Origin: a virus
Taxonomy: Duplodnaviria > Heunggongvirae > Uroviricota > Caudoviricetes
Length of the DNA: 41,211 bases
Direction: 5' to 3' (one strand)
IMG/VR virus record: IMGVR_UViG_2698536518_000008
Location: 1 to 41,211 of that record
Each line of letters opens with the position of its first letter. Position 1 is the stretch's first letter. The notes beneath the pieces were generated by a model. That model was given only the letters and a program-made list of their open reading frames with translations, was not told the origin of the DNA and did not search any database. Below are positions 6,354-35,826 of this stretch, piece after piece. The translations under genes were made by a program, and so were the position numbers.

Positions 6354-7022
6354 TCATTCATTCTTTGGTATGCCGCAAAGGGCGTTTAGCGTTTCAACGG
6401 GAATGGCAAGTGCGGTGCTGGTCGCTTCACGGCGTTCCACCTCAGGCAAATATGGCACTGCATCAGGCCACATCTCAGCCAGTTTTTTAACAGTTGAGAC
6501 TTTGGTTAGAGCACCTTTAACCTGCAATTGGAAGGCATCAACTTCATCGTAAAGAACGTTGATGGTTACCGTCGATTCAGTGAGTCGGTCGTGTAATTTT
6601 CCAACTTTCTTCAGCGTGCTGTAACTTTCAGGAACGAAACCCGAATCAATTACAGGCGCGAAGGAAGCTCCGAAGAACAGGTCGCTTTCAAGATCGTGCT
6701 TACCAATATGTTTTCCACGGTGGAGATAGCGATGATCCAAACCGTTCCTGGCTAATTCGTGATACTCACCATTAATAATGACCTTTAAAATTGCAGTTTT
6801 AGCGCCGACCTGCATCTTGATGAAGGAGTTATCTTTGAAATCTTCCCGAGCCTTAGTTATTTGCTCATCGCTAGTGTTTTCCTGCTTGAGCAATGCCTGT
6901 CGAATTTCTTCAACAATTTTCGCCCTCTCATTAACCGCAGCTTTCGCTTTCTCAAACAATGGGGATGCGAGAAGCAGGTTATGGCATAGCTGATTTTTAA
7001 TTTCGTTGTTAAGACGAATCAT
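6354..7022 (-). CDS. Unknown protein (222 aa), AT-rich accessory gene in pL-proximal (N-equivalent) position
   Basis: ORF with SD (GAGGGT) 6 nt upstream; visibly AT-richer than flanking genes; first gene downstream of the OL operator cluster and ~400-nt leader; no motif I can recognise. Confidence 0.55.
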   Translation of the reverse strand: MIRLNNEIKNQLCHNLLLASPLFEKAKAAVNERAKIVEEIRQALLKQENTSDEQITKAREDFKDNSFIKMQVGAKTAILKVIINGEYHELARNGLDHRYLHRGKHIGKHDLESDLFFGASFAPVIDSGFVPESYSTLKKVGKLHDRLTESTVTINVLYDEVDAFQLQVKGALTKVSTVKKLAEMWPDAVPYLPEVERREATSTALAIPVETLNALCGIPKNE

Positions 7023-7437
7023 TGACTTACCCTCTGTCGTTACCCGCTGATGCGGGAGAAATGCTTTGGCGATGTGGTAGGTGGGAGACCCATTTCGACC
7101 CGATTCGGCCTACTTATCTTCGGCAATAGCTCCTCGGGCCTCGCCGCTTTACGTGCGACATATTCCCGTCCATGAACCCTTCACCACATCCCATAACATT
7201 CCCTGTATTGGTCAGCGCCAACTCCCTGCCAGTGTTGCCCGTTCTCACGCCGTTCTCGCTCTCGCGCGGGGATACTCTCTCACCGACCGGATCGCACCCG
7301 GTGATACAGCACGTTTACGTGTAGGGGTCTTAACAGGTCATTGACGCTGTAAATCTGCATGTTGTTAAAAAGCAGGCGACTTGCTGTCCGCCGCTGGCTA
7401 ACTTCGCTCAGCTGTCGATGTTTCGTTTCGATGGGGT

Positions 7438-7520
7438 AAATTTAGCGTGATGCTAAATTATGCGCAATAGCAAAATGCTAAATTGTTGAATGGTTTTATT
7501 TAGCGTATTGATTAATAAGC
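7438..7520. promoter_or_regulatory. OL-like operator cluster / leftward early promoter region
   Basis: Perfect palindrome AATTTAGC-N5-GCTAAATT at 7439-7459 plus two degenerate copies (about 7466-7486 and 7494-7514); same half-site as in the cI-cro intergenic region. Confidence 0.55.
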
Positions 7521-7564
7521 GATTAAAAATTTACAGCGAAGGAATTCGGGACGTAAAAAAGCCC

Positions 7565-7588
7565 GCGCGATGGCGGGCTTGAGGGGTT
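7565..7588 (-). terminator. Intrinsic terminator downstream of cI
   Basis: Plus-strand AAAAAA-GCCCGC-gcgatg-GCGGGC; on minus strand GC-rich hairpin followed by U6, 10 nt after the cI stop codon. Confidence 0.6.
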
Positions 7589-7598
7589 TTGCGTGAGG

Positions 7599-8276
7599 TT
7601 ATGGGATGTTTAGTATTTTGGCATCAACCACAACGCCGATGATTTTGCAGTTTCCATTAATTTCTAGCATTGGATATGCGGGGTTAAGGGGCTTTAGGAA
7701 GCGTCTGCCGGCATCGATTACAAGCTTCTTAAAGGTCGCTTCGTTATCGCCTTCTAGCTTCGCGACAACCAGCTTTCCGTTGCGCGGCTCGACTTCAGGA
7801 TCAACAAGTATCGCTGCTCCCTCGGGTATGCTCAGTCCAGCCGGGGAGGTCATAGAATCCCCTTTAACGTCCAGCCAGAATGAATCTTCTGAGCAGTCAA
7901 CAGTCGTGTCATACCAGCGATCTATCGCTCTTCGGTGATAAGGTTCTACAGCTTCCATCCATTGCCCCGCGCTTACCCAGCTGATTACAGGATAACTTCC
8001 TTTTGTCTCGTTCAGTCCTCGAAATGCAACGTTCGAAGGTTCTTCACTGGCGTGTAAAACATCCATCCAGCCAAAAGGCAGATCAAGCGCAGTTTCAATT
8101 TTGCGAGCCATCTTATCGCCGATATTGCGATGAGGGTTTGGTCCCAGTAGCTGGCTAAGCGCAGCCGGACTTGTCTCGATGAGCTCGGCAAACTGCGCTT
8201 TGGTCATTCCAGACTCGTGCTGACGCTTCTCGTACAGCGCTTCCAGGTTGGCTTTTCTGATTTCTTTATTTTCCAT
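7599..8276 (-). CDS. cI: CI-type prophage repressor (HTH + S24 LexA-like peptidase domain)
   Basis: Track ORF 7599..8393; likely start at internal Met 8276 (MENKEIRKANLEALYEKRQ...); N-terminal HTH, C-terminal autocleavage domain with GDSM serine motif and downstream lysine (VVAKLEG); divergent from cro. Confidence 0.85.
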   Translation of the reverse strand: MENKEIRKANLEALYEKRQHESGMTKAQFAELIETSPAALSQLLGPNPHRNIGDKMARKIETALDLPFGWMDVLHASEEPSNVAFRGLNETKGSYPVISWVSAGQWMEAVEPYHRRAIDRWYDTTVDCSEDSFWLDVKGDSMTSPAGLSIPEGAAILVDPEVEPRNGKLVVAKLEGDNEATFKKLVIDAGRRFLKPLNPAYPMLEINGNCKIIGVVVDAKILNIP

Positions 8277-8292
8277 ACCTGCATTGTTACTG

Positions 8293-8360
8293 CTTTTAGC
8301 AAAATGATAAATGTGCAAATTGCTAAATGATGCTTGCGTAGTATTTAGCATAACGCTAAA
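8293..8360. promoter_or_regulatory. OR-like operator cluster with divergent promoters (pRM/pR equivalents)
   Basis: TTTAGC-N5-GCTAAA perfect site at 8344-8360 and TTTAGC-N5-GATAAA at 8295-8311, further partial copy around 8316-8338; located between divergent cI and cro starts. Confidence 0.6.
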
Positions 8361-8392
8361 CTCCAAATCAAACGACTCACCCGGAGACACCA

Positions 8393-8626
8393 ATGAGCAC
8401 TGAACTACACCGCTGGCGCAAGGCCGCCACTACCGACGAATGGGCGCAGCTCGCAAAGTTGGCTAACACGACGCCAGGTTACCTGGACCAGATCGCCTAC
8501 GGAAATCGCCGGGCATCTCCAGAAATGGCATCTGCTATCGAGAAAGGCACGAAGAATTTTCACCGCCAGGCTCCGGTCCTAAAAGAAAGCCTGGTATTCG
8601 CATCGCCGCGTGATACTGCGGCCTAA
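8393..8626 (+). CDS. cro: Cro-like HTH regulator
   Basis: 77 aa; first rightward gene after operator cluster; HTH-like segment EWAQLAKLANTTPGYLDQIAYG. Confidence 0.7.
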   Translation: MSTELHRWRKAATTDEWAQLAKLANTTPGYLDQIAYGNRRASPEMASAIEKGTKNFHRQAPVLKESLVFASPRDTAA

Positions 8627-8643
8627 CCACGAAAGGGAAAGCA

Positions 8644-9186
8644 ATGCATTCACTTGCGTATCAACACAATACCGGAATACACCCGGGAGCGATGATAAAC
8701 CGCGCTCAAGCTAAAGCGACGCCGGACCACGAAAAGATCCGCGATGCGGTCCGTGCCTGGTCATCGGCGCTGGATAATCAGGACGTGGTGTCAGCGCTGA
8801 TCATCAACGAATACCGGGAGCAGGGCGGGACCGCCATCAGCTTTCCGGACGACATCAGCCGGGCGCGCCAGAAGCTGTTCCGCTTCCTGGATAACCGCTT
8901 CGACTCTGAGCAGTACCGCGAGAACGTGCGCCAGCTGACGCCCGCAATCATGGCCGTTTTGCCGCTGGAGTATCGCCATCGACTTCTTCCTGAGGACAGT
9001 TTTATGTCCCGCTTAGCTCGACTTGAGAAAGAAACGAGCGAGGCGAAAGTGGCCGTTGCGATGAACGCCCCGCGTCACCAGAAGCTCAAGGAACTCAGTG
9101 AGGGGATTGTAGAGATGTTCCGTGTCGACCCGGATCTGACCGCGCCGCTGATGGCTATGGTCACTTCGATGTTGGGGGTTATGTGA
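8644..9186 (+). CDS. Early regulatory protein (CII-like / YdaT-like by position)
   Basis: 180 aa immediately after cro, SD-like GGGAAAG upstream; assignment by synteny and vague recollection of long CII/YdaT-type proteins, not by firm motif. Confidence 0.4.
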   Translation: MHSLAYQHNTGIHPGAMINRAQAKATPDHEKIRDAVRAWSSALDNQDVVSALIINEYREQGGTAISFPDDISRARQKLFRFLDNRFDSEQYRENVRQLTPAIMAVLPLEYRHRLLPEDSFMSRLARLEKETSEAKVAVAMNAPRHQKLKELSEGIVEMFRVDPDLTAPLMAMVTSMLGVM

Positions 9187-9275
9187 TGGGAAGTTTCAAA
9201 AATGGCGAAAGCCAGTCTGCGCGAACAGAACTGGCCTTCAGATGCAAATCGTGTGCACTCATTGCAGGAGGAATA

Positions 9276-35020: not shown

Positions 35021-35826
35021 TGGGGATTCTAGACGGCCTCATGCAGGCGCAATCTTCTGGCAAAGATACTGTTAAAAAGGTAGGGATCGGCGGGTTCTCA
35101 ATGTTTGCCCGAGTGAGCGATGCTACTGAATACCCGTCTCAGGTTCCTGTAGACGTGCTGGAGGATGGCAGTAACGCGTCAGACGACATTATCAATGGCC
35201 CGCTGACGATAAAAATCAGCGGTGTTGTTGCCGATATTTTTGTCGATGCGAAACCAAACTCTTCTTTTAGCCTGATGCCAGATTATTCGAAGTATGGTGA
35301 GGTGCTGGAGTACATCCCCGCAAAGACGCAGCAGCAGTTGCAAAAAATGAATGAGATTGCCGACCGCGCAGAGCAGGCCATCTTAAAGGCAAAACGCCTG
35401 GCTGATAAAGGAGCCGACCTGTTTGGGCTGGTGGGCAACCCGTCTACTGGTGGCGCTAAAGGTATACGCGAGCAATTTCTCGACTTCATTGAGGGGGTGT
35501 ACTACGGCAAGCAGCTTATTTCCGTGGAGGTGGATTATCGCACCCATGAAAATATGGCGTTAAGCGGCCTGACCATCAGTACCGACAATCAAACGATGGA
35601 AACTAAGTTTGAAGCCAGTTTTACAAAAATCACCTTCACGCAACTGACTACCGCACCGATTGAGCAGCACTTCAAATCCCCCTCGGCAGCTGCTAAATCA
35701 AAAACGGCGGGCGTTGCTAATAAGGGGGCGCAGACGCCCGCTGATAATTCTAAAAAAAGTAACGGGACCAGCCAGTCAAAATCAGTCATGACCTCGTTAA
35801 AAGGGGCGGCGAAATCTTTATTCTAA
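35020..35826 (+). CDS. Tail/baseplate protein (putative DNA-circulation or hub-associated)
   Basis: 268 aa directly after tape measure, ATGG overlap. Confidence 0.4.
   Translation: MGILDGLMQAQSSGKDTVKKVGIGGFSMFARVSDATEYPSQVPVDVLEDGSNASDDIINGPLTIKISGVVADIFVDAKPNSSFSLMPDYSKYGEVLEYIPAKTQQQLQKMNEIADRAEQAILKAKRLADKGADLFGLVGNPSTGGAKGIREQFLDFIEGVYYGKQLISVEVDYRTHENMALSGLTISTDNQTMETKFEASFTKITFTQLTTAPIEQHFKSPSAAAKSKTAGVANKGAQTPADNSKKSNGTSQSKSVMTSLKGAAKSLF

Follow-up and report, generated by a model that had tools for sequence, protein, structure and literature searches.

We analyzed the immunity region of a virus of the class Caudoviricetes in a 41,211-nucleotide (nt) stretch of DNA (IMG/VR record IMGVR_UViG_2698536518_000008, positions 1 to 41,211; the window). 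The region contains a homolog of the lambda repressor gene cI (7599-8276, minus strand; 225 amino acids [aa]) and, diverging from it, a gene for a 77-aa Cro-like regulator (8393-8626, plus strand). Three copies of the inverted repeat TTTAGC-N5-GCTAAA lie in the 116-bp spacer between the two genes, and a second cluster of three copies of the same motif lies beyond cI (7441-7515), after the cI terminator. We consider it highly probable from the sequence that these clusters are the right (OR) and left (OL) operators, respectively, of a lambdoid prophage immunity module related to that of phage H-19B. What was observed directly is described first: the sites themselves, how they cluster and where they lie relative to the genes, their selective conservation, and the way they occur together with the DNA-binding domain of the repressor.

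Two clusters of a shared inverted repeat flank cI

The whole window was scanned for TTTAGC-N5-GCTAAA, with mismatches counted for each site, and positions 6600-9200 were read base by base. In the cluster beyond cI, OL1 (TTTAGC-GTGAT-GCTAAA, 7441-7457) has no mismatch and forms the core of a perfect 21-bp palindrome with arms of 8 bp each (AATTTAGC-GTGAT-GCTAAATT, 7439-7459). OL2 (AATAGC-AAAAT-GCTAAA, 7466-7482), 25 bp center to center from OL1, and OL3 (TTTAGC-GTATT-GATTAA, 7499-7515), 33 bp from OL2, have two mismatches each; the left half of OL3 is good and its right half is weak. Between cI and cro, OR1 (TTTAGC-ATAAC-GCTAAA, 8344-8360) is again a perfect match and OR3 (TTTAGC-AAAAT-GATAAA, 8295-8311) has one mismatch. 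OR2 (ATGTGC-AAATT-GCTAAA, 8311-8327), which lies 16 bp from OR3 and 33 bp from OR1, has three mismatches and a good right half alone, and it is the weakest assignment of the six. A site 25 bp from OR1, mirroring the OL1-OL2 distance, was ruled out: 8319-8335 contains no half-sites and is partly variable in relatives.

A first-pass annotation of this DNA had proposed much of this arrangement. The 21-bp palindrome that it placed beyond cI was confirmed to the base, its two sites between cI and cro (TTTAGC-ataac-GCTAAA and TTTAGC-aaaat-GATAAA) were recovered with 0 and 1 mismatch, and the degenerate neighbors that it mentioned downstream of cI correspond to OL2 and OL3. The gene context that it assumed, a lambda cI homolog with a divergent cro and with sites both in the cI-cro spacer and beyond cI, also held. 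Its count of three sites per cluster stands for OL and OR, with the reservation that OL3 and OR2 each have one good half only. Its description of the clusters as lambda-type and cooperative is an analogy and not a result, since the spacings (25/33 and 33/16 bp) are not those of lambda.

The strong sites are far more numerous than chance would predict. Two perfect sites were seen in 41 kb, against 0.0022 expected from base composition, and five sites with at most two mismatches fell in 337 bp of intergenic DNA, against 0.019 expected from its AT-richer local composition. Likewise, eight exact TTTAGC/GCTAAA hexamers lie within 207 bp (0.096 expected), and the remaining 24 hexamers of the window are near background (19 expected for the whole window). 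Outside the clusters, the only sites with at most two mismatches are those at 35266 and 36771, with two mismatches each (1.4 expected). No site with one mismatch or fewer was found in 206 kb of control immunity-region DNA from prophages with other repressor types.

The product of the intervening gene has the features of a lambdoid repressor. Pfam domains HTH_3 (PF01381, borderline) and Peptidase_S24 (PF00717, strong) were detected, and residues 10-218 align with the lambda repressor (3bdn; E = 5e-32). Within this alignment, Ala103-Gly104 matches the lambda cleavage site, and Ser141 and Lys183 match the S24 catalytic pair; all are invariant in homologs, and their lambda counterparts are A111-G112, S149, and K192. 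Thus, by sequence alignment, the protein combines a helix-turn-helix (HTH) with a self-cleaving S24 domain that carries an Ala-Gly site and a Ser/Lys dyad. In an AlphaFold model of CI, the N-terminal domain (N-domain) has a predicted local distance difference test (pLDDT) score of 81-92, and the HTH comprises residues 26-32 and 37-43 (PAALSQL). A strong intrinsic terminator 3' of cI (7559-7580, minus strand; AAGCCCGCC...GGCGGGCTT followed by TTTTTT), which is conserved in relatives, separates the cI transcript from OL and the adjacent leftward promoter (PL).

Half-sites are conserved selectively in relatives

To assess conservation, we used loci that were retrieved by protein or DNA similarity, not by the motif, and whose repressors are 53-98% identical to that of the window. 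This set comprised Klebsiella phages KO-TP1 and Chronis and prophages of Enterobacter, Citrobacter, Atlantibacter, Phytobacter, Biostraticola, and Pantoea (including loci L003-L008, L024, and L027). Throughout, the half-sites were invariant and the distances between sites contained no insertions or deletions. At OL1, the spacer varied (GTGAT, GTGTT, GTAAT, GCAGT, TCAAT, and GCGAT) and the flanking DNA diverged. In alignment A3, CAATAGC and GCTAAAT of OL2 and TTTAGC and TTGATT of OL3 were invariant. TTTAGCA and GATAAAT of OR3 were kept around a variable spacer, CA and GCTAAA(T) alone were invariant in OR2, and OR1 was nearly invariant over 35 distinct relatives. In Biostraticola, OL lies 1.6 kb beyond cI and is otherwise unchanged. 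By contrast, loci that share the CI C-terminal domain but carry a different N-domain (L009-L012) lack the motif.

A search that started from the motif led back to the same repressor domain. We scanned 2.9 million viral contigs of IMG/VR for ATTTAGC-N5-GCTAAAT alone, with no protein information, and found at least 120 loci; among the matches listed, 81 were clustered (at least two sites within ~120 bp) and 39 were isolated. A homolog of the CI N-domain (35-100% identity) was present at 70 of these 81 clustered loci, at a median of 561 bp from the site, and at 1 of the 39 isolated ones (Fisher P = 4e-20). The matches include diverged members (L066, L078, L095, L146, L135, L110, and others) in contigs of 55-70% GC, where AT-rich TTTAGC-N5-GCTAAA sites have GC-rich spacers. 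In these, two clusters ~0.9-1.2 kb apart flank a repressor with an N-domain 35-48% identical to that of the window and the helix SPAHLSQ, and the PL/OL1/OL2 cassette is recognizably that of the window, down to the CGATGG just downstream of the PL -10. Across the diverged family, in contigs of 47% to ~70% GC, the kept cassette reads AATTTAGC-N5-GCTAAAT-N5-xCAATAGC-N5-GCTAAAT, and the OL1-OL2 geometry persists down to 39% repressor N-domain identity.

The sites overlap three putative promoters

Because a generic promoter scan was negative (see below), PL, the rightward promoter (PR), and the promoter for repressor maintenance (PRM) were placed from conservation and from the annotation of phage phi80. 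Putative PL (7439-7467, minus strand) has a -35 of TTGCGC (7467..7462), a 17-bp spacer, and a -10 of TAAATT (7444..7439), with a predicted start at about 7432. It matches the consensus at 8 of 12 positions and aligns base for base with the annotated -10 and -35 of phi80 pL; the TTG of its -35, which the left edge of OL2 supplies, and the TAAAT of its -10 are kept in relatives. OL1 overlaps the -10 and spacer of this promoter. Putative PR (8334-8362, plus strand), read from the sequence, has the same design (TTGCGT at 8334-8339, a 17-bp spacer, and TAAACT at 8357-8362) and a predicted start at about 8365-8369, and its TTG and TAAAnT are kept in all relatives, including H-19B. OR1 lies between its -35 and -10, and in PL and PR alike the -10 is made by the promoter-proximal half-site (GCTAAA) of the first operator.

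For cI itself, putative PRM (8283-8311, minus strand) would use the right half of OR3 as its -35 (TTTATC, 8311..8306), followed by a 17-bp spacer and a -10 of AACAAT (8288..8283). AACAAT lies 6 nt from the cI ATG, at a fixed distance from it, and its A2 and T6 are kept in 38 of 38 distinct relatives. The predicted start falls at about the A of the ATG (8276), so the cI mRNA would be leaderless, as in lambda. The center of OR2 lies at about -42 from this predicted start; in lambda, CI activates PRM from a position near -42.

From these features, we infer binding, promoter positions, occupancy order, cooperativity, and induction as follows. A dimer of the 225-aa CI would read each 17-bp operator through its HTH, with residues 37-43 as the recognition helix, and each operator would consist of a pair of TTTAGC half-sites in inverted orientation, separated by 5 bp that CI probably does not contact. 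With OL1 and OR1 positioned over the spacer and -10 of PL and PR, respectively, bound repressor would block RNA polymerase; CI on both sites would occlude both -10 elements and shut down the two early operons. Neighboring dimers would help to fill the weaker OL2, OL3, and OR2, the C-terminal domain being homologous to the cooperativity domain of lambda repressor. CI at OR2 could activate cI transcription from PRM, and CI at OR3, over the PRM -35, would give negative autoregulation. Cro presumably uses the same sites. Induction would follow from RecA-stimulated self-cleavage at Ala103-Gly104 via Ser141 and Lys183, and, by analogy with lambda, looping between OL and OR over 903 bp (OL1 to OR1) is possible. 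Of this mechanism, we are least sure of cooperativity and of what OR2 does.

Evidence against the operator assignment and alternative explanations

Several observations weigh against the assignment of the repeats as CI operators or against parts of it. At up to three mismatches, the count of sites in the window is not significant (25 versus 17 ± 4 expected). OR2 has three mismatches, a class frequent by chance, and OL2 and OL3 have two each. The signal therefore rests on the strong sites and their clustering, and OR2 is not callable from the window alone. Most IMG/VR loci were chosen by the motif, so the invariance of the selected site within them is circular, and the only independent loci are those retrieved by protein or DNA similarity. 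The OR1 spacer ATAAC is itself nearly invariant, and part of the conservation of OR1 may thus reflect promoter constraints rather than repressor contacts. A scan of 6900-8700 for consensus sigma-70 promoters found none at threshold (9 of 12 matches): the pairs TTGCGC/TAAATT, TTGCGT/TAAACT, and TTTATC/AACAAT are conserved and overlap the sites, but PL, PR, and PRM amount to weaker consensus matches (8 of 12 or fewer) plus conservation. Finally, OR2 and OR3 share one base pair at their 16-bp distance, and OR1 and OR2 are 33 bp apart, unlike lambda, where operator centers are spaced ~23-24 bp. With such spacings, lambda-style pairwise cooperativity is not to be assumed.

The alternative that survives best is that the operators are the strong sites only (OL1, OR1, OR3, and perhaps OL2), with OR2 and OL3 unbound and the clusters not tripartite. 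OR2 keeps no more than GC of its left half, OL3 reads GATTAA in its right half, and the overlap of OR2 with OR3 looks sterically awkward. Site number also varies among lambdoid relatives, with two OL sites reported in 933W and four OR sites in H-19B (review PMC8065619). On the other hand, the good halves of the two weak sites (GCTAAAT of OR2 and TTTAGC of OL3) and their distances to neighboring sites do not vary among repressors down to 57% identity, although the bases around them do, and this is hard to explain without binding. We regard the restriction to strong sites as unlikely.

A second alternative accepts the sites as real and assigns them mainly or solely to Cro or to another regulator (CII or a host factor), not to CI. 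Cro is an HTH protein encoded beside OR, it is found together with the motif in all enterobacterial relatives, and the Cro of H-19B differs (61% identity) where the half-site differs too; in lambda, moreover, Cro uses the operators of CI. However, motif clusters persist beside a CI N-domain homolog in the diverged GC-rich contigs, where no Cro homolog was detected, and CI is the sole protein common to all motif-bearing loci, indicating that the motif follows CI and not Cro. The second cluster, at PL on the far side of cI, is in keeping with a repressor that controls both early operons, and CII-type activators bind direct repeats in lambda. A main role for a protein other than CI is, in our judgment, very improbable.

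That the repeats are AT-rich promoter elements (-10-like TAAAnT) plus chance palindromes can be given almost no credence: GCTAAA(T/C)T does form the putative -10 of PL as well as that of PR, the conservation of the OR1 spacer is what promoter DNA would show, and three-mismatch sites occur at chance frequency, but the half-sites that lie off promoter elements (distal OL1, left OR3, left OL3, and right OL2) are equally invariant, promoters do not have inverted symmetry about a constant 5-bp gap, observed counts exceed expectation by 100- to 1,000-fold even with the local AT-rich composition, and a particular repressor domain can be predicted from the motif.

The PL leader joins the module to phi80-type DNA at the operator

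The DNA transcribed from putative PL has a different affiliation from the operators. The PL leader (7026-7438, minus strand) matches that of phi80 at 99.8% identity, and the match breaks off on one side at 7439, the first base pair of the OL1 palindrome and the last base of the PL -10, and on the other at 7026, immediately ahead of the first PL gene (start codon at 7022). This makes a sharp mosaic joint, and the stop exactly at 7439 indicates that the immunity module was swapped precisely at the operator boundary.

Within the leader (minus strand), a hairpin (7392..7375) is followed by a boxA-like element, TGCTTTTTAACAA (7374..7362), and by a GC-rich block of ~110 nt (~7225-7345). The boxA-like element is one mismatch from TGCTCTTTAACAA, the rrn boxA consensus, which occurs exactly in the Shiga toxin 2 (Stx2) phage PA2. 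The GC-rich block is conserved in phi80, HK225, KO-TP1, and Stx2 phages of the PA2/TL-2011c type, and in a Klebsiella phage at 75% identity. RNAalifold predicted 40 pairs, 6 of them with compensatory changes; the leader had no Rfam match, and its single-sequence fold was not significantly better than those of shuffled sequences (z = -1.2). This region may be a nut-like or protein-independent antitermination element. A Put-type antiterminator in the PL leader was rejected on present evidence, as phage HK639 shares the first 46 nt of the transcript only (7389-7434); its annotated putL-like RNA lies in the following stretch, where no similarity to the window was seen by eye. The nonsignificant fold of the leader also counted against it. 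An Rfam search of 6900-8700 (E up to 1) returned only subthreshold chance matches (a Trp leader on the cI terminator, rli45, and bxd).

Phages that have the leader differ in the gene that comes first after it (stretches compared: L001 2201-2497 and L171 8546-8758). In the window, it encodes an Nmad5-family protein (6354-7022, minus strand; PF18757, phrog_1965), and no N-like open reading frame was seen between PL and 7022. In phi80, the gene in this place is N (98 aa), in the prophage of Escherichia coli NCTC9040 it encodes a 70-aa Lys/Arg-rich protein (phrog_5305), and in the Stx2 phage PA2 a 215-aa hypothetical protein occupies the same position.

Neighboring genes and annotation of the cI start

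The Cro-like protein has a weak HTH_3 match, belongs to phrog_35, and is 61% identical to the Cro of H-19B; its gene is present in all enterobacterial relatives. The next gene encodes a 180-aa CII-like activator of the YdaT family (8644-9186, plus strand; PF06254, E = 7e-27; phrog_163, "CII-like transcriptional activator," E = 1e-59). This protein falls in the Pfam family named "YdaT toxin" and has the RefSeq label "toxin YdaT domain-containing protein," a name that probably misleads, given that its gene occupies the place of cII in a lambdoid prophage.

Public annotations give the repressor as 250 aa (e.g., P0001 and the NCTC9040 coding sequence) or 264 aa (Chronis). We rejected the 250-aa start (ATG at 8351): this ATG is formed by the OR1 spacer and half-site and lies upstream of the putative PRM, and homologs, including H-19B cI, start at MENK/MESK (8276 in the window). 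The N-terminal extension of the long form (8277-8351, minus strand) spans the operators, and the form is probably an annotation artifact.

The same module, 99.9% identical, lies in NCTC9040 inside a lambdoid prophage that carries int, exo/bet/gam, kil, replication genes, a nin region, and Q. Among 5,426 complete E. coli genomes, 27 contain the module.

Discussion

The module is a genetic switch of the H-19B family and of a familiar type, and operators beside cI are what specialists would expect to find there. The H-19B immunity region is the closest characterized system. It has been reported to contain repressor operators, with four OR sites (review PMC8065619, citing Shi and Friedman 2001). 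The CI N-domain of H-19B is 51% identical to that of the window and its Cro 61% identical, its cI-cro spacer is 113 bp long (116 bp in the window) with sites in the same register, its PR has a -35 of TTGCGG and a -10 of TAAAGT in the same placement, and a -10-like element lies at the same distance upstream of the cI ATG. The half-sites of its OR1 and OR2, however, are TTTATC and GATAAA or GGTAAA, with T or C in place of G at position 5: OR1 is TTTATC-AAAAT-GGTAAA, the right half of OR2 is GATAAA, and TTTAGC occurs in OR3 in the left half only. H-19B differs further in the sequence type of its CI C-terminal domain and in having an N gene where the window has the phi80-type leader. Given the difference at position 5, the window most likely represents a different immunity type. 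In H-19B (L049), we noted a candidate fourth OR site, TTGTTC-TGTGT-GATAAA, ~18 bp to the right of OR1 and between PR and cro. A corresponding site in the window was rejected, since 8362-8392 contains no half-site and is variable among relatives.

The module also resembles that of lambda. The repressors are homologous over residues 10-218, including the C-terminal domain for self-cleavage, and cI and cro are divergent in both. Lambda has 17-bp operators, the first operators over the lytic promoters, and a leaderless cI message, and the C-terminal domain of its repressor mediates cooperativity. The window appears to share these layouts, together with a site near -42 from PRM. In contrast, the operator sequence is unrelated to the lambda consensus (TATCACCGCCGGTGATA), the spacings are 25/33 and 33/16 bp against ~24/23 bp, OL and OR are 903 bp apart against ~2.4 kb, and no rex genes lie between cI and OL.

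With phi80, the window shares 7026-7439 (99.8% identity to the PL leader, which has a putative nutL), a CII-like protein of the same length, and the placement of PL and OL1, with which the annotated phi80 pL -10, -35, and first operator align. The immunity type is not that of phi80, whose CI is 23% identical and whose 19-bp operators (e.g., AATTAAACATCATGTGGAT) are unrelated. In phi80, gene 40A separates cI from OL, and the leader is followed by N, in whose place the window has the Nmad5-family gene. Klebsiella phages KO-TP1 and vB_Kpn_Chronis have the same six sites apart from spacer changes, with CI N-domains 94% and 71% identical, but operators are annotated in neither record. Our literature search, in which subscription journals were only partly covered, found no study of the switch of either phage and no description of a TTTAGC-N5-GCTAAA operator.

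Does the motif define immunity specificity, as the first-pass annotation claimed? In part, the half-site does vary with the repressor N-domain. H-19B and two Pantoea loci (N-domain 51-55% identical) have the same layout with half-sites TTTATC/GATAAA, a change of G to T at half-site position 5 that marks this branch, and Pseudomonas phage Solano (49% identical) has unrelated repeats of the TGTACA type. Repressors whose DNA-binding domains are 39-57% identical, however, keep the same half-sites and OL1-OL2 geometry, and an immunity group is therefore not defined by the motif alone. The proposed comparison of operators across related prophages supported operator function, through the selective conservation of half-sites, without delimiting such a group.

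We looked for a simple recognition-helix code for G versus T at half-site position 5 and found none. H-19B is unique at a helix Thr (SQLTQ) and the Pantoea loci at the preceding Asn, and no single residue therefore explains the switch. That one operator code is common to a very broad cross-immunity family, with specificity switched by single base-pair changes, is an idea we advance tentatively and think doubtful.

The practical outcome is an annotation rule for a recurrent prophage immunity module, consisting of six operator sites, three putative promoters, and a corrected cI start. The module occurs in E. coli, Enterobacter, Klebsiella, Citrobacter, and other genera and in two sequenced Klebsiella phages, and mutual exclusion among prophages and phages can be predicted from the rule. 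It leaves the understanding of how lambdoid switches work unchanged, and it adds a repressor-operator pair near to but distinct from that of H-19B, which could be of use in studying changes of immunity specificity or as an orthogonal part for gene regulation. If repressors of the broader family do bind each other's operators, a single large network of cross-immunity would link many prophages, of Enterobacterales and of higher-GC hosts, that are otherwise unrelated. Heteroimmunity in the family would in that case arise from single base-pair and single-residue switches, and these loci would be a natural set for the study of repressor-operator coevolution.

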